Positions 9,823 through 33,857 of a stretch of 37,363 nucleotides of DNA are shown here, one piece after another. Source of the stretch: Bacteroidota bacterium (lineage in GTDB: Bacteria; Bacteroidota; Bacteroidia; Flavobacteriales_D; Crocinitomicaceae); NCBI GenBank assembly GCA_041172545.1, contig JBEDJV010000001.1, positions 1 to 37,363 on the forward strand. The letters are read 5' to 3'. The notes under the pieces are model-generated. The model was not told the origin of the DNA. It ran no database searches and saw only the letters and a list, made by a program, of their open reading frames with translations. The number at the start of each line of letters is the position of its first letter. Within the stretch, counting starts at the first letter, position 1. Both the position numbers and the translations under genes were made by a program.

Positions 9823-12390
9823 TTAGTCGAATACGACTTTCATTTCAACACGTCTGTTTTTCTGACGTCCTTCCGGTGTGTCATTTGGTGCGATTGGTTT
9901 CGTTTCACCGTAATATTGAGTAACGAAACGTGTTGCGTCGATTCCTTGAGAAACCAAGTAAGCTTTCACTGCTTCTGCTCGTTTTTTAGATAGAAGCATA
10001 TTAGCGGTATCGTCACCTTGATTATCTGTATGTCCGGTAATCTCCAGTTTCCATGTTGGTTTTTTCTTCAACACTTCAGCTAATTCTCCTAAAGATACTT
10101 TCGAACCTTCTAAAATGACATCTTTTGACACTTCGAATTCTAAGTTGTCAAATGCTGTTTTTAAGACTTCAATTACTGCTTGTTCAATCACTGGACATCC
10201 TTTGTTTGATTTAGGTCCTGGTGTATTTGGACAATCGTCGTCTTTGTCTAGAAGCCCATCTTTATCTGTGTCTTTATACGGACAACCTTTATTCGCTGCA
10301 GGACCAGCAAGGGTCGGACATTCGTCATCTTTATCTAAGATTCCATCGTTGTCACCATCTTTATATGGACAACCACGATTTTCTTGAGGACCAGCAACAT
10401 CTGGACATTCATCAATGAAGTCATAAACGCCATCGGCATCTTTGTCTGGGCAACCTTTGTTCTCTTTTGGACCAGCATTGTCAGGACACGCATCATCTGC
10501 ATCTGGTATGCCATCGCTATCACGATCCGGACATCCTTTTAGTGCGAGTAAGCCAGCAACGGTCGGACAAGCGTCTTCTGAATCGATGATTTTATCTCCG
10601 TCTGTATCTGGACATCCTTTGTATTCTTTCAATCCAGCAACATCTGGACAGGCATCTTTTTTGTCGATGATTTTATCTCCATCTTTATCCGGACAACCGT
10701 TAAATTCTTTCGTTCCTGCTTCGTTAATACATTCATCATCTGAATCAGGAATACCATCATTGTCTGTATCTGGACAACCTTTAAATGCCCAAGTTCCTGG
10801 CACATCTTTACATTCATCTTTTCGATTCGAAACTTTGTCTTTATCCCTGTCTTTCGCTCTGTGATAAAGGATTGGTAAACGTGCACCAGCATACAATTCA
10901 ATTCCGCTTACGTCATTTTTAGCAAGCAGGGTTTTCATGTCGGTAATTCCTAAAATCAATGGGCCGATTCGCGTTGCTAAACCATATTTCATTCCACTAT
11001 ATTGATTCATGGAAATCGGCATGTAAACCCCGAAGTAAGGACTATCAAAACTTGGTGTAATGGAGAACTGATTCGCCGTTTTTACCTTGGAGTCTTTTCC
11101 TTTAGGAATCATATTCACCATGGAAGTAGCATTGATGTAGAATCCTTTCCAAATTTGGTAATCGAATTGAAAACTAACCGCTGTTGGTGTACGCATTTTA
11201 AATGTTTGCGATGGATCTTGTAGCGAAACCCACTCTTGGTTTCCTGCGGTAGTTGATTGATTGATTAGACTATCGATAACGCCATCAAATCCTTCCAGGT
11301 TCGTTGCCGTGTTAAAGGTTTGTAAGTTGAATAAGTTGGAGGTGTTTACAGCGAAATTACGGCTTAATCCACCTTTGGTAAATTTCATTCCACCCATATC
11401 AACGATGGAAAATCCTGCACGTAGTTTGTACTTGTTTTCGTCTCGGCGCCATAAATCAGTTTCTCCGTCCATGTCATATTTGAAATTGGCAAATTTTGGA
11501 CGCCATTCGTATACGACTCCAATATCTAAGCCAAAACCAAGTTTAGAAGAAGGATCGATTAGGTCTGCCAAAGTTGGATTTTGCCCAGCTATTCCATTAT
11601 TAATGATTCCATTGATATTGTTGGAATAACCGTAATCAAAGGTTCCTGACAAGTATTGAGATGTATCTTCATTGACTAAATTATAGGAGAAGTCATCTGT
11701 GTGTACATAGGCAGCTGCATGTCCGAGTAAAGCTTTCGGAGCGATACCTATTTTCAAAAAATGTTCTTTGTTATCGATTAACACTTGAGAATAGTTGAAT
11801 CCAACTTCCGACCAAGTCATGTAATTTACATTGAATAATTGTTCGTTGTAAACGGCGTTCCATAAACTGGGGTGCTCTAATCCGTCCTCTGCTAAAACTG
11901 CCAAGGTTGGATCCATGTTGTCCACATTGACAATCGTTCTATTTCGAACATTGAATCCAATCGCCGTTTTTTCGTTGACATGGAACATCGTATTCAATAG
12001 GTCCACTTGGAAATTGATATTCGCGCCGAGCGTTTTTGTGGAGTTTTCGTTGTAGTTGTGAACGACAAAACGGTCAATAAAACTGGAGTCTGGCTGTGTC
12101 CAAGCATTAAAAATAGTTTCATCGCCAAATGATTTATACCACCCATATCCTTTTCCGCCTTGTGCATTGCGCATCGCATTCGCATCAAAATACCCAAAGT
12201 TTTGGTAGATATTCAGATTCGTTCCGAAAAGAAGCATGTCAAATTTGTAGCGTCCATCGACGAAGGTAGCAGGATTCACTTGGTTACCGATTACACCGGC
12301 ATAGTTACTGGAGCCAAGTCCGAGGTAACTTTGTGCGTGAAATTTTGCTTGAATAGCAAAAAGGGAGAGACAGATCAGTAGTTTTTTCAT
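9823..12390 (-). CDS. OmpA-family outer-membrane protein: N-terminal ~520-aa barrel-like domain, seven thrombospondin type-3 (Ca-binding) repeats, C-terminal OmpA/peptidoglycan-binding domain
   Basis: Signal peptide; seven repeats of CPDxDxDGIxDxxDxCPxxxGxxxxxG; C-terminal TGHTDNQGDDTANMLLSKKRAEAVKAYL..NRRVEMKV. 855 aa. Confidence 0.88.
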   Translation of the reverse strand: MKKLLICLSLFAIQAKFHAQSYLGLGSSNYAGVIGNQVNPATFVDGRYKFDMLLFGTNLNIYQNFGYFDANAMRNAQGGKGYGWYKSFGDETIFNAWTQPDSSFIDRFVVHNYNENSTKTLGANINFQVDLLNTMFHVNEKTAIGFNVRNRTIVNVDNMDPTLAVLAEDGLEHPSLWNAVYNEQLFNVNYMTWSEVGFNYSQVLIDNKEHFLKIGIAPKALLGHAAAYVHTDDFSYNLVNEDTSQYLSGTFDYGYSNNINGIINNGIAGQNPTLADLIDPSSKLGFGLDIGVVYEWRPKFANFKYDMDGETDLWRRDENKYKLRAGFSIVDMGGMKFTKGGLSRNFAVNTSNLFNLQTFNTATNLEGFDGVIDSLINQSTTAGNQEWVSLQDPSQTFKMRTPTAVSFQFDYQIWKGFYINATSMVNMIPKGKDSKVKTANQFSITPSFDSPYFGVYMPISMNQYSGMKYGLATRIGPLILGITDMKTLLAKNDVSGIELYAGARLPILYHRAKDRDKDKVSNRKDECKDVPGTWAFKGCPDTDNDGIPDSDDECINEAGTKEFNGCPDKDGDKIIDKKDACPDVAGLKEYKGCPDTDGDKIIDSEDACPTVAGLLALKGCPDRDSDGIPDADDACPDNAGPKENKGCPDKDADGVYDFIDECPDVAGPQENRGCPYKDGDNDGILDKDDECPTLAGPAANKGCPYKDTDKDGLLDKDDDCPNTPGPKSNKGCPVIEQAVIEVLKTAFDNLEFEVSKDVILEGSKVSLGELAEVLKKKPTWKLEITGHTDNQGDDTANMLLSKKRAEAVKAYLVSQGIDATRFVTQYYGETKPIAPNDTPEGRQKNRRVEMKVVFD
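10198..10776 (-). repeat. Seven tandem TSP type-3 repeat units (27-29 codons each) inside the OmpA-family gene
   Basis: Protein residues ~539-731. This periodic Asp/Cys/Pro coding produces several long spurious ORFs on both strands (10115-10901). Confidence 0.85.
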
Positions 12391-19176: not shown

Positions 19177-19194
19177 GGAGGCTTATTTGCCTCC
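19177..19194 (-). terminator. Rho-independent terminator overlapping the stop codon of the 1,981-aa gene
   Basis: On the minus strand, ggaggc-aaataa-gcctcc followed by TTTTTTATT. The last Gly codons and the TAA lie inside the stem-loop. Confidence 0.75.
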
Positions 19195-22100
19195 TCCTTT
19201 TAGTGTCGTTCCACCTTGCGGTGTAGTCGGATTTGTTGGATTCTGCTGTCCAGTTGATGGTTTATTCCCACCACCCGTAGTCGTTGTTCCGTTTGTAGAA
19301 GCCGGCGCGGGCTTTGCCGGCGCAGCGGTCGTTGTAGGTTTCGCGGGTGCTGGAGTGACCGTTGGTTTCGCTGGTGGCGGCGGCGGCGGTGGAGTTGCAC
19401 TAGGTTTTGCCGGAGCTGGAGGTGTTACTGCCGGTTTCGCGGGAGTTGGCGTAACCGTTGGTTTTACTGGAGCCGGAGCTGGTTTAGCTGGAATAGCCGG
19501 CGTTTGTCCATTGGTTTTGTTTTGACCTGGCTGATTCTGTTTCATCATTCCATCGGAATTGCCTGAGCCGCCATTTTGACTTCCATCATCAAAAGTAATC
19601 AGGTAGGATTTCGAATCAGAACCACATGAACTTGTTGCGGTTAAAACAACTTCGTTGCTTCCCGGTGATAGCGTCAAATTAGCACTGATGGCTCCATTCA
19701 TATTGCTGAAATTGGTCAAGTTATTTCCGTTAAACATCAACTGAATAACTGTACTTGGTGCATAGTTGGTCACCGTAGATATGTAATTGAGGTTCGTTGA
19801 ATTCGTGGTGCTTCCCGAACTTGGATCAGTAGTTACGTTGACTACTGGCGGAATACAACTTTGGTAACGAATCGTGCGCGATTGACTATCTGTACCACAT
19901 GCATTGGTTGCCGTTAAAACGATTTCGTTTACTCCTTCTGGCAAAGTTAATGTGGAAGTGAAATTAGTGTTGACTAAGTTGAAATTATTGACAGCACTTC
20001 CAGCAACTGTTAAGTTAATACCTTGATTATTAGGCATGTTTAAAATCGTAGCCTGAAAAGGGAAAATCGGACTATTTACCCCATAAAATAAATTCAATGG
20101 ATTTTGAATGCTCACAACGGGTGGTATGCATTGATCAAAGGTAATACTCGTTGTTTGACTATCCGTCCCACAACTATTTACCGCTGATAATACAATCTGA
20201 TTTAAGCCATTGGTTAAGGTTAATACGGCTGAAATCTGACCATTGGAGAAACTAGCATTCGGAATGATGTTGCCATTCAAAGTCAAGTTGATCCCTTGTC
20301 CATTTCCAATGTTTTGAACAGTTCCAGTGAAATTGTAACTCGCATTGGTAACCGTTGTGTTGGAAGTGATTGGATTGCTAATATTCACGACTGGAGCAAG
20401 ACATTCTTCAAATTTGATGTAAACCGTTTTCGTATCGGTGCCGCATGCATTGGTCACTGTTACTTTTATTTCATTGTTCCCGTTCGAAAGATTCACATTC
20501 GCTGAAATGTTTCCGTTTAACATGTTGAAATTCGATACGTTCGTTCCATTCACACTTAAACTAATTTGTGGAAGTGTTGCATTTTGAACATTCGCTGTAA
20601 ATGCATAATTGCTTGAACTCACCGTGATACTGTTGCTAGATGGATTACTGATGTTAACAACAGGTGGGACACATGGATTATACGCCACATTGACGGTTTT
20701 ACTTTCTGAACCACATGCACCGTTCGCGCTCAAGACAACGCTGTTGTTTCCTGTTGATAACGGAATAGTCGCGGAAACAAGTCCAGTAGTTGGATTGAAT
20801 TGAACGTTACTTACTGGTACACCATTCACCGTTAAACTCAAACCTTGTGCATTCGTCATGTTTTGTACGGACGCAGCGAAAGAAATGGAATTACTGGTTG
20901 CGGTGTAGTTAGTACCGCTTGGATTGTTTATCGTTACAACGGGTGCAACACACGGCTCGTAGCGAATCACACGGCTTTGCGCATCGTTTCCACAATTATT
21001 CGTTGCAGAAAGGGAAATGGTATTCATCCCGTTCGATAAAGTAATGCTCGCAGTTACTTGTCCATTCATGTAGTTATATGCACTAATTGGAGAGCCGTTT
21101 AAGGTCAACGAAATCCCTTGTACCGAACTCATGTTTGTTACATTCGCTGCAAAGGTGATGACTGGATTAGAAACACCATAATTGGTGTTTAATGGATTGG
21201 TAATGGTCACTTGAGGAGCAGTACAAGCTTGGTAATTGATGGTTGCCGTTTTAGAATCTATTCCACACGCATTCACTGCTGAAAGGACAAAAGTGTTTAT
21301 TCCGGCATTCAAGTTGACATTTGCGCTAATCACTCCGTTATTAAGGGTCGCATTTGAAACAGTTGTTCCATTTAATTGCAATGAAATCCCTTGTAAACTG
21401 GACATGTGTTGAACGTTTGCTTGGAATGTGTATGCAGCATTTGTGACTGAAAGATTGTTGCTCAGTGGATTCGATATTTGAACAATCGGAGCAGTACAAT
21501 TCAAGTAATTCAAGGTAAGTGATTTCATGTCCGTGCCACATGCGTTCGTAGCGTTTATGACAAACGTGTTCATACCGGAAGCAAGGTTAACCGATGCGGA
21601 TAGTTGTCCATTCGTGAACGTATAATTGGTAATGGATGAACCATTCAAACTCAACAAGAGACCCTGTGCGTTTGTGATGTTTTGAATAGCCGCAGTAAAC
21701 GTGTAGGCAGCTGTTGCAACCGTACCATTTGCATTTGCTGGACTCGAAATAGTTACGACTGGTGCAGTACAATTGGTGTAGAAAATTGTGATTGTTTTAA
21801 TATCTGTACCACAAGCATTTGTAGCTTTTAAAACGATTGTGTTTAATCCATTTTGAAGATTGAGATTTGCGACTACGGCTCCATTGTTGAAACTGAAATT
21901 TGAAAGGCTCGTTCCATTCAGACTAAGGAGAATTTCTTGGGCGCTTGTTATGTTCTGAAGGTTCGCTTGAAAAGCAAAACTTGCTGCATTCACAGAGGTT
22001 CCGCTGTTGCTTGGACTCGTTATAGCAATTGATGGTGCTGTACATGGTGTAAATTGAATGTTCCAATTGTGTTGATCGGTTCCGCAATTGTTGCTAACTG

Positions 22101-25100
22101 TTAAAACAAAGGAATTCACACCTGAAACAGGATTCACAGTTGCGCTGAATTGGCCATTCACTAAGCTAAACGGACGTTGGATACCATTTTGAGTAAAGAC
22201 GGTATTTTGAGTAGTTGCGTGAGCAATAGATGCAGTAATTGTTTGTGAAGCATTAGCAACAGAAACGACGGTGCTTGCATTGTTTGAGAAGTTTGAAATG
22301 GTAGGAGCGATACAATTATCGTAATTCACGGTAATCGTTTCCACATCAACACCACAGTCATTGCTGGCATTGAAGATAATGGTATTTAAACCTGGACTTA
22401 AAACGAGCGCTGCAGTTACCGCATCATTTCCGTTATTAAATGATGTAGAAACACCATTTAATTTTAAACTCATGTTTTGAGTCGTTGCTCCAAGTACGCT
22501 CGCGCTAAATGGGTAATTAGCATTGGTTACGGTCGTTCCCGATGCAATCGAGGAATTTAATTGAATGGTCGGTGGAATACATTGAACATAGTTTACCGTG
22601 AATGTTTCTGCATCGTTTCCACACGCATTGCTAACAGATAAAGTAATCGTGTTGATGCCATTCGTTAGGGTAATGTTTGCGTCAATGATGCCATTGGCAA
22701 AAGTGAAGGGGATTTGTTGTCCGTTTTTAACCAACTGGATGTTTTGTGATTGAGCAATATTGGTCGCACTTGCTTTGAATGCAAGCGTTCCAAGATTTGT
22801 TGTCCCGCCTGTTGTAGTAGGTTGAATCAGGGTGATTTGAGGTGCGATGCAGTTGTTGTAATTAACCGTGATTGTTTTGGAATCGCTTCCACAAGAAACA
22901 CTTGTTACTGTCACTACAAACGTGTTCATACCAGGAATTAGCGTGGTTACGGCATTGATAATTCCAGCGGCTTGATTAAACGCGATCGGAGAGCCATTTT
23001 GAGTCACCGTGATGGTTTGATTCGATGGATTGTTCGTCGTAGACGTACTGCCTACTGAGGTCGAAGAAAGCGTACTGGCAATTAAGTTATAAATGGAGGA
23101 ATTCACTGTTCCACCCGCTGAAAGAACGGTTACGTTCGGTGTAATTCCTGTACAATTGATGTAATTAAATTGAATCGTTTCGACATCTGAACCACAGTTA
23201 TTCGTTGCGGTAATCGTGATGCTGTTCGCACCATTCACTGGATTTAATCCCAATTCTAAAGCACCGGTTGTCGCATTAAACGTGAAGTTCGATTGCTCGA
23301 TTCCGTTCACAATCACTTTGATGTTTTGCTTCGTTGCAACGTTGCTGATGGTTGATTTCAATCGAATCGCATTCGCTGTTGCTGTAAGTGATTGATTTTG
23401 TAAGGGACTTTGAACTGAAATCGTTGGAGCAGTACAATTTTGATAATTGATGGTCGTAAGTTCCACATCGTTTCCACATCCATTGCTAACTTCTAGGTTG
23501 AAGGTATTTATTCCCGCAGTCAGTGTTGTTGGTATTTGGATTTGTCCATTCGCTTGAACCACCACATTCGGAATTTGAAGTCCGTTTTGGAATACCTTCA
23601 TCTGTACATTTGTCAAGCTACCTGTCAACGCTGCACTCATTGTGTAATTTGCTGAATTGGTTGTCGTTCCAGAAGCACTCGGATTTAATAACTGCAGACT
23701 TACAGGGACACAATTGTCGTAATTGATGGTTGCCGTATAGGTGTTCGTTCCGCAGTCATTTGTAACGGTTAGTTGAATGGTGTTCACACCTGGAACAAGC
23801 GTAATAGCACGTTGGATTAAGCCGTTTGCTTGATTGTATGTTGCGCCATTTAGCGCCATTCCATTCATCATCAATTTGATTCCGTTTGCATGAACGGTTC
23901 CGTGAATGACAGCACTAAAGGCAAAGTCGTTTGTTTTTACGGTGATGTTTCCTCCATTTGGATTCGTAAAAGTGGCGGTAGGAGTGACGCAATTAACGAG
24001 TGTTACCAGTACGTTCGCTGTTTCACTGCCACAATTATTGCTCGCTGTCAGGTAAAATCTATTTTGTCCTTCATGCAAAGAAACCATCGCATCCAGTGCA
24101 TTTGTGGAGGCATTGTAAGTATAAAGTACGGGTTGATTTTGGTCGTTCAATAATGTTATGCCATTCGAATTTAACACGTTACTCACTTTAAATTCAATGC
24201 GGTATTGACTATTTGTGACTGTTTTATTGTTTCCAGACATCAAGGTCAACACTGGCTTTGGACAATTACTAGCTGAAGTGTAATTGTTTACATTGCTGGA
24301 AGTATTTTGAGTGGAATTTCCGCCGCGAGATTTAAAGTTTATTCTCAGGTATGCGGAAGTGTAATGGTGCCAATCATTTTTCAGACGTGGCGAGGCAGAA
24401 ATGTAGCCATCAAAAGTATCTCCACGGGTAAATGTTGTTTTGTGTTCGATTCCTAAACTAGTTCTTTTCCCCACTTGATATCCTAGTCCAAAACCTAAAC
24501 TAGGCATCCATTTTACGTTATATTTATTATCAACTCCGCCGTCAAGTCGGGTTTCATAAAGTCCGTCTAACGTCGAAGGTAATTGTGGTCCGATTGGTCC
24601 GTTTTGCTGTAAAGAAGTGTAATCGTAAAGGGAACTAGAATCAATGGTACGTAATAAATCACCGTATGTTTGAGTCCAAGTAAAGCCAATTCCACCAAAA
24701 ATATAGGGATCAATTCCTGTTTTTTCTCGAACACCATTAAAATGTAAAACAAGTTCTAAGGCAAGTCGGCGAACATCTGTTTGGAAGTTGTTGACGTAGA
24801 TTGAATTGCTATCGATGTTGTAGCTATCTAAAGGTCCGCCTTGATAGTTTTTAAGAGAAAAGGCGCTGGTATCCTGTCCAACCCATGTTCCAGCAAGGTA
24901 GCGTCCACGCAAGTCGAAACTAATTTTTTTACCGTAGTTATAATTAAACGAGCGACCAAGAATGAGTCCATAACCGGAACTATTGACATTTTTCACATCT
25001 GTTGAATTCCAGGTAACACCTGCATTTAATCCAAAAAACCACTTAGAACTGATGTCGTAATTGATTCGTTGTGCGTGAGCAAATGTGATACTAAGTAAGA

Positions 25101-25128
25101 GTATGCTTAGAATGTACAATTTTTTCAT
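19183..25128 (-). CDS. Giant envelope protein: signal peptide + ~250-aa OM beta-barrel-like domain + 17 tandem ~92-aa Cys-containing Ig-like repeats + 134-aa Pro/Ala/Lys/Thr-rich tail
   Basis: ATG start and signal peptide ending FAHAQ. The N-terminal domain has alternating hydrophobic strands and ends YLRINF. 17 repeats each begin xC(x)(A/P)P and end N(x)CG(x)(D/E). There is no T9SS C-terminal domain. Own terminator. Confidence 0.85.
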   Translation of the reverse strand: MKKLYILSILLLSITFAHAQRINYDISSKWFFGLNAGVTWNSTDVKNVNSSGYGLILGRSFNYNYGKKISFDLRGRYLAGTWVGQDTSAFSLKNYQGGPLDSYNIDSNSIYVNNFQTDVRRLALELVLHFNGVREKTGIDPYIFGGIGFTWTQTYGDLLRTIDSSSLYDYTSLQQNGPIGPQLPSTLDGLYETRLDGGVDNKYNVKWMPSLGFGLGYQVGKRTSLGIEHKTTFTRGDTFDGYISASPRLKNDWHHYTSAYLRINFKSRGGNSTQNTSSNVNNYTSASNCPKPVLTLMSGNNKTVTNSQYRIEFKVSNVLNSNGITLLNDQNQPVLYTYNASTNALDAMVSLHEGQNRFYLTASNNCGSETANVLVTLVNCVTPTATFTNPNGGNITVKTNDFAFSAVIHGTVHANGIKLMMNGMALNGATYNQANGLIQRAITLVPGVNTIQLTVTNDCGTNTYTATINYDNCVPVSLQLLNPSASGTTTNSANYTMSAALTGSLTNVQMKVFQNGLQIPNVVVQANGQIQIPTTLTAGINTFNLEVSNGCGNDVELTTINYQNCTAPTISVQSPLQNQSLTATANAIRLKSTISNVATKQNIKVIVNGIEQSNFTFNATTGALELGLNPVNGANSITITATNNCGSDVETIQFNYINCTGITPNVTVLSAGGTVNSSIYNLIASTLSSTSVGSTSTTNNPSNQTITVTQNGSPIAFNQAAGIINAVTTLIPGMNTFVVTVTSVSCGSDSKTITVNYNNCIAPQITLIQPTTTGGTTNLGTLAFKASATNIAQSQNIQLVKNGQQIPFTFANGIIDANITLTNGINTITLSVSNACGNDAETFTVNYVQCIPPTIQLNSSIASGTTVTNANYPFSASVLGATTQNMSLKLNGVSTSFNNGNDAVTAALVLSPGLNTIIFNASNDCGVDVETITVNYDNCIAPTISNFSNNASTVVSVANASQTITASIAHATTQNTVFTQNGIQRPFSLVNGQFSATVNPVSGVNSFVLTVSNNCGTDQHNWNIQFTPCTAPSIAITSPSNSGTSVNAASFAFQANLQNITSAQEILLSLNGTSLSNFSFNNGAVVANLNLQNGLNTIVLKATNACGTDIKTITIFYTNCTAPVVTISSPANANGTVATAAYTFTAAIQNITNAQGLLLSLNGSSITNYTFTNGQLSASVNLASGMNTFVINATNACGTDMKSLTLNYLNCTAPIVQISNPLSNNLSVTNAAYTFQANVQHMSSLQGISLQLNGTTVSNATLNNGVISANVNLNAGINTFVLSAVNACGIDSKTATINYQACTAPQVTITNPLNTNYGVSNPVITFAANVTNMSSVQGISLTLNGSPISAYNYMNGQVTASITLSNGMNTISLSATNNCGNDAQSRVIRYEPCVAPVVTINNPSGTNYTATSNSISFAASVQNMTNAQGLSLTVNGVPVSNVQFNPTTGLVSATIPLSTGNNSVVLSANGACGSESKTVNVAYNPCVPPVVNISNPSSNSITVSSSNYAFTANVQNATLPQISLSVNGTNVSNFNMLNGNISANVNLSNGNNEIKVTVTNACGTDTKTVYIKFEECLAPVVNISNPITSNTTVTNASYNFTGTVQNIGNGQGINLTLNGNIIPNASFSNGQISAVLTLTNGLNQIVLSAVNSCGTDSQTTSITFDQCIPPVVSIQNPLNLFYGVNSPIFPFQATILNMPNNQGINLTVAGSAVNNFNLVNTNFTSTLTLPEGVNEIVLTATNACGTDSQSRTIRYQSCIPPVVNVTTDPSSGSTTNSTNLNYISTVTNYAPSTVIQLMFNGNNLTNFSNMNGAISANLTLSPGSNEVVLTATSSCGSDSKSYLITFDDGSQNGGSGNSDGMMKQNQPGQNKTNGQTPAIPAKPAPAPVKPTVTPTPAKPAVTPPAPAKPSATPPPPPPPAKPTVTPAPAKPTTTAAPAKPAPASTNGTTTTGGGNKPSTGQQNPTNPTTPQGGTTLKGGGK
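19297..19503 (-). repeat. Low-complexity PAKP/VTP proline-rich coding tract (locally GC-rich)
   Basis: Encodes PAIPAKPAPAPVKPTVTPTPAKPAVTPPAPAKPSATPPPPPPPAKPTVTPAPAKPTTTAAPAKPAPAS. It creates spurious ORFs at 19187-19525 (+) and 19200-19400 (-). Confidence 0.9.
19588..24267 (-). repeat. Array of 17 divergent tandem Ig-like domain repeats (protein residues 288-1847)
   Basis: Counted by eye from the recurring ..N.CG.D....I.Y..C..P... boundary. 1,560 aa / 17 = ~92 aa per unit. The copies are diverged, not identical at DNA level. Confidence 0.85.
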
Positions 25129-26115: not shown

Positions 26116-27357
26116 CTTTATTTTATAAGGTACTTAAAACACTTTTCCAACTAGCTTTTTCGGCTAAAAGTCCTTCAATATCTGAAATGCCAATACGAAT
26201 TTGTTCCATGGTGTCGCGATCTCGAACCGTGACCATGTTGTCTGTCAAGGTCTGATGGTCGATGGTGATGGAGAATGGTGTTCCTATAGCATCTTGTCTG
26301 CGGTAACGTTTTCCAATGGAATCTTTTTCATCATACTGGATGGAATAGTCAAATTGCAGTTGTTTCATGATTTCACGTGCTTTTTCTGGAAGCCCATCTT
26401 TTTTCACCAACGGCAAGACTGCTGCTTTGTAAGGAGCGAGAACTGCTGGAATTTTGAGTACAACACGTTCTGATCCATCTTCTAATTGCTCGTTTTGATA
26501 AGCAGCGCTAAGAACGGATAAAAACATGCGGTCGAGTCCAACGGATGTTTCCACCACATACGGTACGTAGCTTTGGTTTAATTCTGGGTCAAAGAACTGT
26601 AGTTTTTTACCAGAAAACTGTTCGTGTTGTTTTAAATCGAAATCTGTACGGGAGTGAATACCTTCTAATTCCTTGAATCCCATTGGGAAATTGTATTCGA
26701 TATCACACGCTGCATTTGCATAGTGTGCCAATTTGATGTGGTCGTGAAAGCGGTAAAGGTTTGCTCCAAGTCCAAGGTTTTTGTGCCATTTTTCGCGTGC
26801 ATCTTTCCAGTATGCATACCATTTCATTTCTTCGCCTGGACGAACAAAGAACTGCATTTCCATTTGTTCGAATTCGCGCATGCGGAAAATGAACTGACGT
26901 GCAACGATTTCGTTTCGGAACGCTTTTCCAATTTGGGCGATTCCAAAAGGAATTTTCATTCTACCCGATTTTTGAACGTTTAAGAAGTTTACAAAAATTC
27001 CTTGCGCCGTTTCTGGACGAAGGTAAATCGTTGATGCATCACCCGCAACAGAACCTAGTTCAGTGGAGAACATCAAATTAAATTGACGAACATCGGTCCA
27101 GTTTTTAGAACCGGAAACAGGACAAACGATTTCAAGATCGACGATTAGGTTGCGAACTGCTTCTAAATCATTGTTTTCCAATGCTTCACGCATGCGGCTT
27201 TCAATGGAAGTAATTTTTTCTGCGTTTCGAAGGACATTTGGATTCGTCGCACGGAATTGCGTTTCGTCAAAGTCAGCGCCAAAGCGGTTTTTTCCTTTTT
27301 CGACTTCCTTTTCTATTTTTTGACGGATTTTCTCCATGTGCTCTTCGAGCAACACAT

Positions 27358-27425
27358 CCGCGCGGTATCTTTTTTTGGAATCTTTATTGTCCCGCGCGGT
27401 ATCTTTTTTTGGAATCTTTATTGTC
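27358..27425. repeat. Perfect 2 x 34-bp direct tandem duplication
   Basis: 27358-27391 equals 27392-27425 (ccgcgcggtatctttttttggaatctttattgtc), 34/34 identical. It duplicates the [11 protein letters not shown] codons and shifts the frame by +1. Confidence 0.95.
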
Positions 27426-27585
27426 AATCAATGGATCATTAAAAGCATCTACGTGTCCGGATGCTTTCCAAGTAGTTGGGTGCATAAAAATGGATGCATC
27501 AATTCCAACGATGTTTTCGTGCATTTGCACCATTGCTTTCCACCAATATGTTTTGATGTTGTTTTTCAACTCTGAACCTAATTGT

Positions 27586-27723
27586 CCGTAGTCGTATGTG
27601 GCAGCTAGTCCGTCGTAAATTTCCGAAGAAGGAAAAATAAATCCGTATTCTTTTCCGTAGTCGTATGTGGCAGCTAGTCCGTCGTAAATTTCCGAAGAAG
27701 GAAAAATAAATCCGTATTCTTTT
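27586..27723. repeat. Perfect 2 x 69-bp direct tandem duplication
   Basis: 27586-27654 equals 27655-27723, 69/69 identical. It encodes [23 protein letters not shown] twice. Confidence 0.95.
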
Positions 27724-27771
27724 GAATGCGAGATAATGTCCTTTAGTTTGTCTTGATTTTGATCCATGCCA

Positions 27772-27779
27772 CAAAGTTA
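27772..27779 (-). promoter_or_regulatory. Bacteroidota-type -7 box (TAACTTTG) for glyQS
   Basis: The minus strand reads TAACTTTGtggcATG, which matches TAnnTTTG. The box ends 4 nt before the ATG, so the mRNA would be leaderless or nearly so. No clean TTTG -33 element (TTTA only). Confidence 0.35.
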
Positions 27780-27867
27780 GCCCTTCTATAGATTTGAGCG
27801 TTAAAATCTGAAAACAATTTCAACAAGTCATTTTTGAAAGAATGCTGCGATTGTTTACTTTTACTCC

Positions 27868-28608
27868 ATGCGTTTATATCTTTCCAAATCCGAATTTATC
27901 GAAACGAGTGAAGCAATTGATTTATCAATGTCACTTCAAGCCTCAACAGAAAACGTCAGAGCATGGTATGTTGATCCACCTCGAATGGAGACTGTTCGTG
28001 CAAATGGATTCATTGGAAGCATCAAAGAAGGTGGAAGCGTGAATTTTCGCGATGTATTTTTCAATCCACACGGACACGGGACACATACGGAATGTTGTGG
28101 ACACATTACCCAGGAAGTATACGCAGTAAATGATGTGTTAAAGGAGTTTTTCTATCGCGCAACATTGGTAACGGTAGATCCAGTTCAATTGGAAAATGGT
28201 GATTTAGTCGTTCAAGCGGCTCAAATCGCACCTTTTTTAAACAAGGACTTCAGTGAAGCCTTGCTCATTCGAACCTTGCCGAATGGACTGGATAAAAAAT
28301 CAATGAATTATTCTGGAACCAATCCGTGTTATTTGGACATAGAAATAGTGGATTTATTGAACGATTTTGGGGTCAAACACTTATTGGTTGACCAACCATC
28401 TGTAGACCGCGAAGAAGATGGCGGTGCCTTGGCCTTTCATCACGCATTTTGGAATGTACCAGAAAAACCAAATTTTGAACGCACCATTACTGAATTAATT
28501 TATGTTCCGAATGACGTGGCGGATGGAAACTATATTCTTGAAATTCAACTTGCCGCATTTCACAACGATGCGAGTCCGAGTAGACCAGTTCTCTACAAAA
28601 TACAATAA
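27868..28608 (+). CDS. Cyclase-family (kynurenine-formamidase-fold) metal-dependent hydrolase
   Basis: 246 aa. NPHGHGTHTECCGH resembles the HxGTHxDxPxH motif of the putative-cyclase/arylformamidase family, with a later DQPSVD. No signal peptide. Confidence 0.6.
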   Translation: MRLYLSKSEFIETSEAIDLSMSLQASTENVRAWYVDPPRMETVRANGFIGSIKEGGSVNFRDVFFNPHGHGTHTECCGHITQEVYAVNDVLKEFFYRATLVTVDPVQLENGDLVVQAAQIAPFLNKDFSEALLIRTLPNGLDKKSMNYSGTNPCYLDIEIVDLLNDFGVKHLLVDQPSVDREEDGGALAFHHAFWNVPEKPNFERTITELIYVPNDVADGNYILEIQLAAFHNDASPSRPVLYKIQ

Positions 28609-28629: not shown

Positions 28630-28960
28630 CCTAGTAGTAGACATTAAAGTCTGAGTGGTACGATTTAGTAATAAGGACAGGCTCTTTTTATATATATTCC
28701 CTAGGGACGTCAACAAAAACTATTAAACTCTTATCAAACTAGAAAATGAAACTGCCTCTCCAAGCAGCCTGTCAACTTCTACATATAAAAAGAATCCTGT
28801 TTCTCTCCTTATTTCATTATAAATGTAAGAACTAAGTTTGGGGTTATTTTCATCAAATGAATATCCTTAAGCGTCAAATGAACATTGTGCCCCTTTTTGT
28901 GAATATTTCAATTTAGGATGTAGAGAAATCGACAATTCTCGCCACTTAGGCACAAAAAAA

Positions 28961-29007: not shown

Positions 29008-30369
29008 TTATTGAATCACCAATTTTTTCGAGCCATTTTGTCCATGCACTTTCACATGATATATTCCTTTATACAAGGTATCTGCATGGAAATAAGCGAT
29101 GGTGCTTCCTTGAACAATCTGTTGAGATTGGATGAGTTTCCCAAGTGCGTCGAACAATTCAACGGTATATGATTGATTTGCCAAATTATTCACTTGAACC
29201 ATGATGATGTCGTTGCTTGGATTCGGGTAAACAGACCATTCATTTTCGGTTAATTCAGTGATACCTGCTGATGAGGTGTATGTGGTGACTGTTTCCGTGA
29301 TCGTTGTAACTTTGGATGCTGTTTTCACTCCGTAAAACGTTGGGCCTACAGCATAGGGATAAGCAGAATTCCATTCGCTATCTACTGTCGCAAAATAGCA
29401 ATAGATTCCATTCGGATACTCGGGAGTGACGCAAACGCGTCCATTATGACTATCTAAATAATCTGCTTGTCCATTATGACTCACAAATTCATAATCTTCG
29501 CGGAAGTAACCTAACGGATAGGTTGTACTTACCACCGGACCGTCTGGAACATCTGTTCCATCCGCCCAAACCGTTCGCGTGGTGATGTTGCGCAACTGGT
29601 ACCCTGATTTGATGCGCGTAATTCCACCAGTTCCATCGGCATTTTTATATCCATATGCCCCGTAAATGGGAAATCCGTCGTAGGCATATCCAATTAACGG
29701 TGAGTGAACATTAGAATCAATGACGTAAAGTCCATCGGCATCGTACAAATCACACACATTTGAAATGACAGTAAGATCTAATTTAAACGCGCTTGGATTT
29801 TGGTGATGGTGGTAGTTTCCCATGGCCGGATGTCCTTTGGAACAATCAAACCCTGCTTTTTCTGCAGGAATGGCGTCTCGATTCCAAGACATGGCAGCTC
29901 CGGGTCCGCCTGGACATGGAGACATGCCGGGTAATCCACCGCATAAGGTGTTCGTATTCGAATTCCACGCAACGCCGTCTCGGTAATCAAATAAGGCCAC
30001 TCCGTTGATGAAAATCCCAATGTTCCCGCCTGATGTTGCTGTTGCCGTTCCGGTGTTTTGTACTGGATTCAATGGCATTTTGAAAATCGCATTTTGACTT
30101 GTTGCTAAAGATGGATTGCCATCCATAAATGGACCAGTGATATAAGACGGAATGCCTTTTGTTGAGACGTAAACCCAATTGTTCGAATACTGAACCGTTT
30201 GAACGTTGGCTAACGTGGTTTCGTTGATTGGTGTGGAATTTCCTTGCACGTAATGTCTTCCAGTTATTCCAGTTGAATTGATTAACCAATGTTCAATGGC
30301 AGGATTTAACTGTGTCATCGCTTGATTTCCCACGCAAAGGAAAAGGATAAAGTGGACTATTTTTTTCAT
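29008..30369 (-). CDS. YHYH-domain protein with type-A T9SS C-terminal sorting domain
   Basis: Signal peptide; GHPAMGNYHHHQNP (a variant of the YHYH motif) and GYAYDGFPIYG; C-terminal VYPNPSNDIIMVQV...GIYHVKVHGQNGSKKLVIQ. 453 aa. Confidence 0.7.
   Translation of the reverse strand: MKKIVHFILFLCVGNQAMTQLNPAIEHWLINSTGITGRHYVQGNSTPINETTLANVQTVQYSNNWVYVSTKGIPSYITGPFMDGNPSLATSQNAIFKMPLNPVQNTGTATATSGGNIGIFINGVALFDYRDGVAWNSNTNTLCGGLPGMSPCPGGPGAAMSWNRDAIPAEKAGFDCSKGHPAMGNYHHHQNPSAFKLDLTVISNVCDLYDADGLYVIDSNVHSPLIGYAYDGFPIYGAYGYKNADGTGGITRIKSGYQLRNITTRTVWADGTDVPDGPVVSTTYPLGYFREDYEFVSHNGQADYLDSHNGRVCVTPEYPNGIYCYFATVDSEWNSAYPYAVGPTFYGVKTASKVTTITETVTTYTSSAGITELTENEWSVYPNPSNDIIMVQVNNLANQSYTVELFDALGKLIQSQQIVQGSTIAYFHADTLYKGIYHVKVHGQNGSKKLVIQ
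29011..29238 (-). other. Type-A T9SS C-terminal sorting domain of the YHYH protein
   Basis: The last 76 aa follow the canonical PNPxxD...G.Y.V.V pattern. Confidence 0.75.
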
Positions 30370-30392
30370 GGATCTTTTTTTAAAGTTAGACG

Positions 30393-31436
30393 TTATTTCT
30401 TTTCAAAACTTGCATTTCGCTCATTTTTAGGATATTTGAAAAGTGGATTAAATAAAAATGTAGGATCACTTAAGGTTTTTAAGAATGCAATGAGGTCTTT
30501 TTGTTCATGATCCGAAAAAGGGCGCTTTAGCTTATCCAACTCATTGCTTTTCAGGTTCGTTGTTGCATGTAATTGACTGTAATGCACTAGGACTTCCTTC
30601 AGTTGCTTAAAGCGTCCATCATGCATATATGGAAAACTAAATTCAATGTTTCGAAGGGTAGGAATTTTGAACAACATAGAATCTTCGTTTCGGTTGGTGA
30701 TGCCCATTCGTCCATAATCCGCTAACTTGGGATTCACCGGAAGTCCATTTGACTTGAATTCATGACGTGTGAAAAGCGGTTCTTGGTGACAGGAAGCACA
30801 GTATTTTTTAAATAAGGCATAGCCTGCTTTTTCCTGTTCATTAAAAACGGCTTGATGGTTTTTCACTTGATCGTATTTCGATTGTGCGGAAACAAGTCCG
30901 ATGGTGAAATTTGCAAGTGCTTTTAACAGGAGATCTGTTGTGATGATGTCATCCCCGAATGCTTGGTAAAAGCGTTTACGGTAATAAGAGGAAGCGTTCA
31001 AACGTTTCAAGATTTCCTGCAGCGAATTATCCATTTCCTTCGCATGGGTGAGCGGATTGATGGCTTGTTTGTTTAATTGTCCAACACCACCATCCCAATG
31101 AAAGGATCGCTGCCAAGCTAAATTGATGAGAACCGGTGAGTTCCTGGTGCCAATCTTCCCATCAATCCCATGACTTAACGCGTGATCAATGTGCGTAAAA
31201 CCTGAATACTGCAAATGACAACTCGCGCATGAAATGGTGCTGTCTCGTGAAAGGTCGGGATCATAAAACAAAGTACGACCTAATTCAAATTTAGTTAGGC
31301 TAATCGGATTCGCCTCAAAATCATATACGGGTTTAGGCCAATTTTTTGGAAGGTAAAATGGGTGTCCGTTTTTCGTTACACTGAACATAAGTGTGATGAA
31401 TAGCAGTAATCCAAATATGCGCAGTATGGACCTCAT
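30393..31436 (-). CDS. Di-haem cytochrome c peroxidase / MauG-family enzyme (MbnH-like)
   Basis: Two CxxCH sites (CASCHLQ and CASCHQE) and PSLRN-like TLRNIEFSFPYMHDGRF. The ATG at 31436 forms an ATGA with the upstream stop. The track start at 31469 is a TTG extension. Confidence 0.85.
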   Translation of the reverse strand: MRSILRIFGLLLFITLMFSVTKNGHPFYLPKNWPKPVYDFEANPISLTKFELGRTLFYDPDLSRDSTISCASCHLQYSGFTHIDHALSHGIDGKIGTRNSPVLINLAWQRSFHWDGGVGQLNKQAINPLTHAKEMDNSLQEILKRLNASSYYRKRFYQAFGDDIITTDLLLKALANFTIGLVSAQSKYDQVKNHQAVFNEQEKAGYALFKKYCASCHQEPLFTRHEFKSNGLPVNPKLADYGRMGITNRNEDSMLFKIPTLRNIEFSFPYMHDGRFKQLKEVLVHYSQLHATTNLKSNELDKLKRPFSDHEQKDLIAFLKTLSDPTFLFNPLFKYPKNERNASFEKK

Positions 31437-32083
31437 TTGGTATAGAAATAACGTGCGATAAATTGACAATAGCTTTTCGCGAGCGGACTAGGAATCATAA
31501 TGCGTTGGACATTCTCCAAATTTGATGCCTGTTCAAAGAATGGTTTGAGGTCTAAAACGAGTGTGTCTCCTTTCATTTCAATGTTCATTGGAACCATGGT
31601 GTCATTTGGTTTTCGGTATCCGCCTAAGTGGAATTCGAAGGTTTGATCCTCTAAAGGAATGCGTGTGGATTTTCCGGTGCACTTGAATTGTATGTAACCG
31701 GAATTCCATGCCCAGTACATTCCTTTAAGTGGATCCAAGTCACCTTCAACGGATTCAGAAACGTGATAAGAACTATCCATGCCAAATTGAAAGGACATCG
31801 TTTCGTATTCCTTGATGGGGAAATCAGTAAATAACGTTAAGGATTGTTCGTTGGCCAAATCGATGAGGTGGGTTCCAAGTATATGATGTTGTCGGATTTG
31901 CTTTTGAAAGTGAAAATCGGACACATACATTTTCAATTCATCGAAGCGAATGGTATCTGTCCCTAGTTTGTACGCTTTTTCGAGTTGAAGGGCATCAGAA
32001 TCCCACTGAAATTGCACATGTAATTGTCCACGAGCATGTAGGGCAAGAAAAAGAATGAGAAAAGTAAATTTCGCTCGTTTCAT
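31433..32083 (-). CDS. Putative MbnP-family periplasmic (copper-binding) protein
   Basis: 216 aa with a signal peptide. The call rests mainly on context: a small secreted beta-rich protein translationally coupled immediately upstream of a MauG/CCP-type di-haem enzyme, as in MbnP-MbnH pairs. It has a W-rich core, GMYWAWNSGYIQFK. Not verified by search. Confidence 0.45.
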   Translation of the reverse strand: MKRAKFTFLILFLALHARGQLHVQFQWDSDALQLEKAYKLGTDTIRFDELKMYVSDFHFQKQIRQHHILGTHLIDLANEQSLTLFTDFPIKEYETMSFQFGMDSSYHVSESVEGDLDPLKGMYWAWNSGYIQFKCTGKSTRIPLEDQTFEFHLGGYRKPNDTMVPMNIEMKGDTLVLDLKPFFEQASNLENVQRIMIPSPLAKSYCQFIARYFYTK

Positions 32084-32520
32084 GGTCTTGGACCCCGACC
32101 CGGTCGGTCGCTTTGTTCAATCATGCGGTGGACCACTTCTGCTAGTTTCTTTGCTTGTTGCGCATTGCAATGAGCTTTTACTCGGGTAAAGTGCTCGAAA
32201 GTACAGGCATCAATTTTGGTTTGTAGCGCACCAATTTTTTGATAAAGCGCTTTGTTTTGAACCGCAGCATTTTTATCCAATTTGATTTGTGCGCGAAGTG
32301 CTTTTTGCTCCTCCAATAAGTCTCCTTTTTCAGCGAAATGTTGTTTAAACTCTGCGTCAACCCATTCAGCATCCTTTCCCTTCATTTTCAAAACGACACT
32401 TAACTTAGGTGGGTGGGGTGGATGTCCAGTATTTCTGCCTTTCATGAACTGCACCAAAATAATGGCATTCATGACAATTAGAATACCTAATAGAACATAC
32501 AAAAGTCGGTTAGTTTTCAT
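32080..32520 (-). CDS. Spy/CpxP-like periplasmic stress / heavy-metal sensor protein, N-terminally anchored
   Basis: 146 aa. TM anchor followed by helical LxxxQ-type repeats (LLEEQKALRAQI, TFEHFTRVKAHCNAQQAKKL). Sits in the usual third position after sigma and anti-sigma. ATGA overlap with the next gene. Confidence 0.55.
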   Translation of the reverse strand: MKTNRLLYVLLGILIVMNAIILVQFMKGRNTGHPPHPPKLSVVLKMKGKDAEWVDAEFKQHFAEKGDLLEEQKALRAQIKLDKNAAVQNKALYQKIGALQTKIDACTFEHFTRVKAHCNAQQAKKLAEVVHRMIEQSDRPGRGPRP

Positions 32521-32526
32521 CGTTCG

Positions 32527-32769
32527 TTATATGGAAAGATTAGAGCCAAAATTAGCATATTGTGTTTCAAGTAGTTGTTCCTCCGTTAATTTTTCTTGTC
32601 GAACACTTAAATAGCTGAGGTTAACCACTACGCATACGATCGTTGCAACAGCGAAGATGGTAGTTCGACGAGTCGCCTTTTTTGCTAATATCGGTGCTTG
32701 CATGAGTTTTTCATGTAAGGTACTTGAAACCTCTAGTTTTTGCTGGTGAAATGGATGTTCGTTCATCAT
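32527..32769 (-). CDS. Small single-pass membrane protein, probable anti-sigma factor
   Basis: 80 aa with one TM helix (TIFAVATIVCVVVNLSYL), located directly downstream of the ECF sigma gene. Confidence 0.5.
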   Translation of the reverse strand: MMNEHPFHQQKLEVSSTLHEKLMQAPILAKKATRRTTIFAVATIVCVVVNLSYLSVRQEKLTEEQLLETQYANFGSNLSI

Positions 32770-32805
32770 ATTGTTTTAGATGTTATCAGGTTGTAAATCT
32801 TGCAG

Positions 32806-33375
32806 TTAAATCCAATTATTTTTTACGGATGCTTCTAATTGTCGTTTTAATTGCTGTTTTGCACGGAAAATAAGTGATTCGATGGCGGATAATGAAAGGT
32901 CCATACTTTCACTGATTTCTTTGTAGCTAAATTCTTCCATGTGATGTAAGGTATAGGCAATGCGTTGATTTTCTGGTAGGTTTTGGACAGCTTTCAAAAA
33001 TGCTTTTGTTCGTTCTTTCTCCATCAATACTTGTGCTGGATTTTTTTCTAGGTCTAACGTATGATCTATAAAATCCGTATCGATTCGTTGGTGTATGCCG
33101 AATCTTTTTTTTCGCTTGGCTTTTCGAATGTATTCCAAGCATTTGTTCAAGGTGATGCGATGTACCCATGTCGATAATTTCGCGTCCCCTTTGAATTTAT
33201 GGATGGACTGATAAATGGTGATAAAGACGTCTTGGGTGGCATCCTCTGCTTCTTCTTTGTTTTGTAGAATGTACCAGCACATATTTAATACCTTTTTCTC
33301 ATAGGTAAGTACGAGTACTTCAAATGCATGTACATCACCGCGTTGCAACGCTTGAATATCAATTTCTACGGACAC
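32806..33375 (-). CDS. ECF-subfamily RNA polymerase sigma-70 factor
   Basis: Region 2 (EEAEDATQDVFITIY, STWVHRITLNKCLEYIRK) and region 4 (LPENQRIAYTLHHMEEFSYKEISESMDLSLSAIESLIFRAKQQL). The start as tracked is GTG. Confidence 0.9.
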   Translation of the reverse strand: MSVEIDIQALQRGDVHAFEVLVLTYEKKVLNMCWYILQNKEEAEDATQDVFITIYQSIHKFKGDAKLSTWVHRITLNKCLEYIRKAKRKKRFGIHQRIDTDFIDHTLDLEKNPAQVLMEKERTKAFLKAVQNLPENQRIAYTLHHMEEFSYKEISESMDLSLSAIESLIFRAKQQLKRQLEASVKNNWI

Positions 33376-33410
33376 TGCTAATGAGATGTCATTTTACAAG
33401 AAAACTTGTG

Positions 33411-33857
33411 TTAAAAGAAAAGCCTGCCATTCAACCATTCAGGATCGAGGATGGCCTTTTGTTTTTCATAAAATCGAATGGCGGGTTCATTCCAGGTGAG
33501 TACTTGCCAGTCCATGCGCTGTACCTTCCTGTTTTTCGCTGTTTCTAGGACTTCATCAAACAACAATTGACCAATGCCATGTTGTCTTTCGGATTCGATA
33601 ACGTAGAAGTCTTCTAAGTATAAACAGGCACCTTTCCAAGTGGAGTAGGAGGTATAGTAAAGGGCAAATCCAACAACTTTGTTTTCCTTTTCTGCAACAA
33701 TGGCTTCACAGAGTTCTTTTTCGAATAAGTCAATCGCTAATTGCTCCACTGTATTGGTGACTTGTTCCGGTGCTTTTTCGTAGAGCGCAAGCTCTTGAAT
33801 CAGCGCGAAAATGGCTGAAACATCTGTTTGTTTAGCTGGACGAATGAATGCATTCAT
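33411..33857 (-). CDS. GNAT-family N-acetyltransferase (diamine/SSAT-like)
   Basis: 148 aa with IQELALYEKAPEQV and QHGIGQLLF (the acetyl-CoA Q/RxxGxG/A motif). Its ATG overlaps the sprA stop (TAATG). Confidence 0.8.
   Translation of the reverse strand: MNAFIRPAKQTDVSAIFALIQELALYEKAPEQVTNTVEQLAIDLFEKELCEAIVAEKENKVVGFALYYTSYSTWKGACLYLEDFYVIESERQHGIGQLLFDEVLETAKNRKVQRMDWQVLTWNEPAIRFYEKQKAILDPEWLNGRLFF

Follow-up and report, generated by a model that had tools for sequence, protein, structure and literature searches.

Two private tandem duplications interrupt the glycyl-tRNA synthetase gene of a Bacteroidota contig and probably reflect a local assembly error

Does a bacterium live with an essential aminoacyl-tRNA synthetase gene that is broken in two, or is the gene broken only in its assembled sequence? 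The question is raised by the window (the whole 37,363-nt stretch of DNA that was analysed), in which the gene for glycyl-tRNA synthetase (GlyRS), glyQS, is divided between two minus-strand ORFs, that is, 27384..27767 (127 aa, ATG start) and 26123..27427 (434 aa, TTG start), which share 44 nt (27384–27427). The original prediction, made from the sequence alone, described this as the only GlyRS gene in view, and a search of the 37-kb window found no second GlyRS (nor any Rfam family or tRNA). It also gave the span as 1,645 nt (26123–27767, minus strand), reduced to 1,542 nt, or 513 codons plus a stop, when one copy of each of two duplications is removed; we recomputed this arithmetic, and all of its details are right. 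As written, the locus is two ORFs of 127 and 434 aa rather than a single uninterrupted ORF of ~513 codons; with the extra copies deleted in silico it is such an ORF, without an internal stop, as are the 14 conspecific loci described below. The features of the locus are as follows.

26123..27767, minus strand: glyQS-type (alpha2, class II) glycyl-tRNA synthetase gene with two tandem duplications, identified by Pfam, by solved-structure matches and by identity to a conspecific protein (P0121)
27655..27723, minus strand: 5' copy of the 69-nt duplication, in frame, encoding a 23-aa peptide; all relatives and conspecifics lack the duplication
27586..27654, minus strand: 3' copy of the 69-nt duplication, identical to the 5' copy by repeat search and string comparison; the match runs just 1 nt further (27585)
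27392..27425, minus strand: 5' copy of the 34-nt duplication (GACAATAAAGATTCCAAAAAAAGATACCGCGCGG), which shifts the frame by one nucleotide (repeat search, string comparison)
27358..27391, minus strand: 3' copy of the 34-nt duplication, identical, with a junction without microhomology (repeat search, string comparison)
27384..27386, minus strand: premature TAA that ends the 127-aa N-terminal ORF, produced by reading the 3' copy of the 34-nt unit in the shifted frame
27392..27654, minus strand: 263-nt middle block with one copy of each duplication at its ends; conspecific alignments break at both ends

The duplications are exact. Tandem Repeats Finder reports two 100%-match arrays, one with a period of 69 at 27585–27723 and one with a period of 34 at 27358–27425, and a second repeat search agrees; by direct string comparison, 27655–27723 is identical to 27586–27654 and 27392–27425 is identical to 27358–27391. 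These are the only two perfect tandem duplications of at least 18 nt in the 37,363-nt window, and a perfect tandem copy of 34 or 69 nt cannot be chance. Both have zero spacer and 160 nt lie between them; the microhomology at the junctions is 1 nt for the 69-nt unit and 0 nt for the 34-nt unit.

Judged by its domains and structural matches, the restored gene is a normal member of the alpha2 (glyQS-type) class II GlyRS family. Its protein passes the cut-offs of two Pfam families, PF00587 (tRNA-synt_2b; E=6.5e-11) and PF03129 (HGTP_anticodon; E=2e-18), and the conspecific GlyRS products additionally carry PF28494 (GlyRS_ins_1). The top solved-structure matches are the bacterial GlyRSs 8u2q (E=1.3e-124), 8sld and 1ati (E=3.7e-120), with an alignment that covers residues 12–107 and 178–502 of the restored protein; both duplicated segments are located inside residues 12–107, a region that is aligned to 8u2q with high confidence. 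The restored protein thus resembles the bacterial alpha2 enzymes (Thermus thermophilus 1ATI and the GlyRS of 8U2Q) in its class II core and HGTP anticodon-binding domain, and at 513 aa it has the same length as the GlyRSs of Bacteroidota relatives; in contrast to those enzymes, the ORF as written is interrupted and contains a 23-aa repeat of a conserved N-terminal segment.

An exact-sequence look-up located the restored 513-aa protein verbatim in a public collection (P0121, annotated as "glycyl-tRNA synthetase", with JGI, ENA and Logan as sources). Eleven contigs of independent freshwater metagenome samples encode it in an intact gene of 1,542 nt; 10 of these contigs were listed and nine were read as DNA. 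Their DNA is 95–98.4% identical to that of the window, so these contigs are conspecific with it; they also share its gene order (SprA … cyclase, GlyRS, an RHS-like protein of 295 aa, a protein of ~2,000 aa, a SurA-like protein and 5-FTHF cyclo-ligase). Three more conspecific contigs (L096–L098), located via the neighbouring RHS-like protein, likewise contain an intact 513-aa gene, so at least 14 conspecific assemblies (11 + 3) encode the uninterrupted enzyme. The glyQS gene is polymorphic in its DNA within the species, yet all 11 of the P0121 contigs encode the same protein as the restored gene. The original claim, namely that an essential gene is intact except for two simple insertions, is therefore strongly supported, because the restored protein is identical to the GlyRS of 11 conspecific contigs and 98% identical to that of a sister species.

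The lesions are found on one contig. P0135 (127 aa) and P0123 (434 aa), the products of the split gene, are encoded by a single contig, a whole 37,363-bp NCBI contig that is the window itself; P0135 is a singleton cluster and was the sole 100%/100% match in a homology search with the 127-aa fragment. In the 119 next-best N-terminal GlyRS fragments, the SSEIY motif is never repeated and the frameshift tail never occurs. The products expected from either duplication on its own, that is, a 536-aa allele (69-nt duplication) and a 104-aa N-terminal fragment (34-nt duplication), are absent from ~15 billion proteins, as is the 547-aa product of the rescue considered below. When the window was aligned by megablast to all 12 conspecific loci that span the region, each alignment fell into three blocks (..27391, 27392/4–27654 and 27654..). 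The middle block (27392–27654) is 100% identical to L087, L089, L090 and L094, and the flanks of these loci are 96–98% identical to the window. Near-identical strains occur in SRR30127127 (99.97% over 3.5 kb), JGI 3300047280 and JGI 3300047392; the strain fragments of this kind that were found (L099, L102 and L103; 99.8–99.97%) do not cover the duplications. Across the 21 kb that can be compared with conspecifics, there is no private indel >6 nt besides the two duplications. Thus, the duplications exist in the deposited sequence, are perfect and are private to one contig.

In a scan of one genome per species we collected 599 related loci; the best 80 of these 599 are all uninterrupted, with ~513 codons, and the 120 best-listed protein matches are all in frame. 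When metagenome contigs were scanned with a 32-mer that lies between the duplications, the matches were all from other species, with nucleotide identities of at most 81%. The nearest relative among the loci listed is a Crocinitomicaceae MAG from Lake Mendota (L001), whose protein is 98% identical over 513 residues without gaps and whose flanks are collinear with the window at ~75–77% identity. At the nucleotide level, the restored gene and that of L001 are 86.7% identical, with 64% identity at third codon positions, and their codon differences comprise 182 synonymous and 10 non-synonymous changes. Because the protein is so much better conserved than the DNA (98% vs 86.7%) and synonymous differences so outnumber non-synonymous ones, these codon comparisons show strong purifying selection on the gene along the whole lineage to the window, with no decay besides the two duplications. 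A decaying pseudogene would be expected to contain an excess of non-synonymous changes or further lesions; the gene shows neither (182 vs 10 codons relative to L001, and 0 amino acid differences from the conspecific protein).

The 5' end of the gene is conserved beyond this. The intergenic region between glyQS and the divergently transcribed cyclase gene is strongly conserved in three species (the window, L001 and L081), with a conserved stretch at 27697–27888 (minus strand) that extends into the 5' end of glyQS and matches no Rfam family; glyQS and its L001 counterpart do not differ in their first 71 nt (100% identity), despite 64% identity at third positions gene-wide. We considered whether this 71-nt identity identifies a cross-species chimera and rejected the possibility because L081 is equally conserved, as for a conserved 5' end and promoter. 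A TAACTTTG motif at 27772–27779 stops 4 nt short of the glyQS ATG; we take it to resemble the Bacteroidota -7 promoter element TAnnTTTG, and its position suggests that the glyQS leader may be very short or absent. Further along, in the intergenic DNA downstream of the cyclase gene (at about 28667–28668), the window lacks 1 nt that is present in all eight conspecific contigs whose alignments were scanned for indels here; this position is outside ORFs of at least 150 aa.

If both lesions were real, the frame might be regained during expression, for which the original prediction proposed the following slip site in the overlap of the two ORFs.

27404..27410, minus strand: A7 run (AAA AAA AGA, Lys-Lys-Arg) in the 5' copy of the 34-nt unit

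On such a reading, one A of the A7 run would be lost in transcription, or the ribosome would shift by +1 there, and the result would be an active 547-aa GlyRS whose conserved N-terminal core tolerates both the 23-aa repeat and an insertion of 11 aa. The frame arithmetic holds: when we recomputed it, loss of one A from 27404–27410 gave a 547-aa ORF with the predicted peptide. The A7 run is within the interval 27386–27429, anywhere in which a one-nucleotide deletion also yields an uninterrupted 547-aa ORF; nothing supports use of the rescue. The run is located in the ORF overlap because it is part of a duplicated native coding unit, that is, it is present by construction (a second A7, at 27370–27376, is downstream of the premature stop). 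The same A7 occurs in L001 and in the intact conspecific genes, which need no slippage; in 97 relatives, the homologous A-run is between 2 and 8 nt long, according to which synonymous codons are used, whereas the SKKRY peptide is unchanged in 93/97; and A/T runs of at least 7 are common in the window (30 per 37 kb). Read in this context, the A7 is ordinary AAA-AAA-AGA coding in a 40% G+C genome, not a recoding signal. A programmed frameshift is also disfavoured because a programmed event would be conserved among orthologues and this frameshift is private to one contig: the 80 best genome loci, the 120 best-listed proteins and the 14 conspecific loci are all in frame. Sites of the prfB/RF2 type combine a stop codon where the shift occurs with a Shine-Dalgarno-like stimulator upstream, and different species share them. 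The locus is like them in that a +1 shift is needed to join two ORFs; unlike them, its premature stop is 7 codons downstream of the A7 run, the shift site itself contains neither a stop nor an obviously rare codon, and orthologues do not share the frameshift. Slippage is known to rescue frameshifted genes in endosymbionts. The locus resembles slippage rescue on long poly(A/T) runs in having a frame-disrupting indel beside an A-run, with the frame restored by the loss of one A (Baranov et al. 2005, PMC1088944). However, selection against slippage-prone runs is evident at ~9 nt in many bacteria and runs of 8 nt are productive in some (PMC1088944), so that an A7, which is shorter, should slip only rarely, although the threshold may differ in this organism; unlike the known productive sites (~8–9 nt or more, and conserved among homologues; PMC1088944), this run is not conserved in nucleotides, is present in intact orthologues and accompanies a frameshift that is private. 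Moreover, production of an essential enzyme would hinge on an inefficient event, and the N-terminal core, its most conserved part, would contain 34 additional residues. We consider rescue on the A7 run very improbable, in agreement with the original prediction, which had rated an artefact or a recent pseudogene as likelier than programmed recoding; the privacy of the lesions and the presence of the A7, with synonymous variation, in intact genes uphold that rating. We give still less credence to a functional split enzyme, in which the 127-aa N-terminal and 434-aa C-terminal fragments would assemble non-covalently into an active GlyRS: the two ORFs do jointly cover the whole protein with a slight overlap, but the split is private to one contig, no relative examined is split, the downstream ORF has only a TTG start that is inside the upstream ORF, and the break is within the conserved N-terminal region of the catalytic core.

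The remaining choice is between a lesion in the organism and a lesion in the contig. For the former, two tandem duplications, possibly generated by one complex replication template-switch event, would very recently have inactivated glyQS, leaving a brand-new pseudogene in a cell with another GlyRS elsewhere or in a dead-end variant. Spontaneous mutations normally include tandem duplications, copies that are still perfectly identical are in keeping with a very recent event, and the deposited sequence contains both duplications with no Ns; also, k-mer graph assemblers normally require reads that contain a junction, which favours real duplications and counts against an assembly error. However, GlyRS is essential, and the strong purifying selection in both the species and the genus argues against a redundant second enzyme, of which the 37-kb window in any case contains none; without such a backup, a null allele could not be the majority in the population. 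The event would also have required two rare changes within 260 nt, while the remainder of the gene and the 21-kb flank stayed free of lesions, and the allele is in no other assembly found. A real, recent lesion is therefore unlikely in our assessment. We favour a local assembly or joining error in one MAG contig as the origin of the split glyQS, with a probability of about 0.75. This reading is favoured because the restored protein is found verbatim on 11 independent contigs while the split products are found on one contig only, because the gene shows no decay, and because an inactive allele of a gene this essential and constrained cannot predominate in a population that lacks a backup, against which the constraint itself argues. 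The occurrence of two perfect duplications 160 nt apart in an essential gene, with microhomologies of 1 and 0 nt and no private indel >6 nt in 21 kb, also indicates one local problem rather than two independent mutations.

The assembly error can be pictured as follows. A 263-nt piece (27392–27654) would have been joined to both of its neighbours with overlaps of 34 nt and 69 nt that were not collapsed, and each uncollapsed overlap would then appear as one perfect tandem duplication. The duplications would be absent from the actual DNA, the junctions would presumably lack read support, and the organism would make the same uninterrupted 513-aa GlyRS as its conspecifics, with no recoding. The gene would then be the ordinary, single-copy glyQS of a population of freshwater Crocinitomicaceae (Flavobacteriales). 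The locus is hard to assemble, as judged from near-identical strains: their Logan contigs stop inside glyQS (L099 at 26176, L100 at 26958 and L101 at 26822) and their JGI contigs are just 5–6 kb. One documented type of local error in metagenome assemblies is a duplicated overlap that is left at a scaffold join (Chen et al. 2020, Genome Res, PMC7111523). As in those errors (PMC7111523), the copies in the window are perfect and directly adjacent at a proposed join, they would make a protein-coding gene sequence in a public MAG incorrect, and removal of one copy would give the true sequence, here an exact match to 11 independent assemblies. The duplications are also private to one assembly, with a single copy in the others. 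The locus differs from the published cases in that those have Ns between the copies (PMC7111523), whereas this contig contains no N anywhere, and in that two proposed joins would flank a 263-nt piece. The sizes of the overlaps also count against an artefact, that is, 34 and 69 nt fit no single k-mer size, and no specific assembler step can be named; by inspection, we found no consistent fit of 34, 69 or 263 nt to a k-mer size or read length. The conspecific haplotype that the window matches best changes at the duplications, so that the sequence upstream of them, the sequence between them and the sequence downstream each match a different one. We considered this switch at the block boundaries as evidence of a chimeric join; it is compatible with one but not diagnostic, because similar mosaicism occurs approximately every kb along the contig.

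The biological weight of the locus is small: the species has a normal GlyRS, and the anomaly, well observed, has a mundane explanation. Its value is for quality control, that is, as an example of a public MAG contig whose essential gene will be called by automated annotation as two bogus proteins or as a pseudogene; the spurious 127- and 434-aa products are already in a large protein collection. The analysis also provides a cheap test for broken essential genes in metagenome contigs, in which the gene is restored in silico and the exact protein is sought in independent conspecific assemblies. If the lesion were real, the locus would be an interesting case, in which the cell would need either recoding or a backup enzyme to replace an essential aminoacyl-tRNA synthetase gene.

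Outside glyQS, the window is unremarkable Bacteroidota chromosomal DNA; it encodes SprA, a TonB-dependent receptor, an OmpA/TSP3 protein, a SurA-like isomerase, RNase HII, exonuclease VII and a PhoR/PhoP-like pair. Within the OmpA-family gene (9823–12390, minus strand), six diverged direct repeats of ~81 nt (63–72% identity) are located at 10262–10818; these are thrombospondin type 3 repeats (Pfam TSP_3), that is, ordinary repeat-domain coding. The protein of ~2,000 aa (19183–25128, minus strand) has no confident Pfam domain and differs in length among strains (1,979, 1,981, 1,993, 2,005, 2,008, 2,010 and 2,035 aa); the strain differences are clustered at ~19250–20250 and 21000–22500, and the neighbouring genes are 97–100% identical. 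This pattern suggests that it is probably a variable surface protein.

A second variable region is located at about 29750–33750, where two of the conspecific contigs (L090 and L097) are 80–88% identical to the window or do not align; their flanks are 97–98% identical. The region encodes a YHYH protein, a di-haem peroxidase (CCP_MauG), MbnP, two small ORFs and an ECF sigma factor; the pattern suggests that an allele block within a copper-related gene cluster was recombined or imported. In the window, the ORFs for CCP_MauG (30393–31469, TTG start, 358 aa) and MbnP (31433–32083), both on the minus strand, overlap by 37 nt; the conspecific gene calls place the CCP_MauG start later (347 aa, with a 4-nt overlap with MbnP), and this later start is more likely to be the true one.
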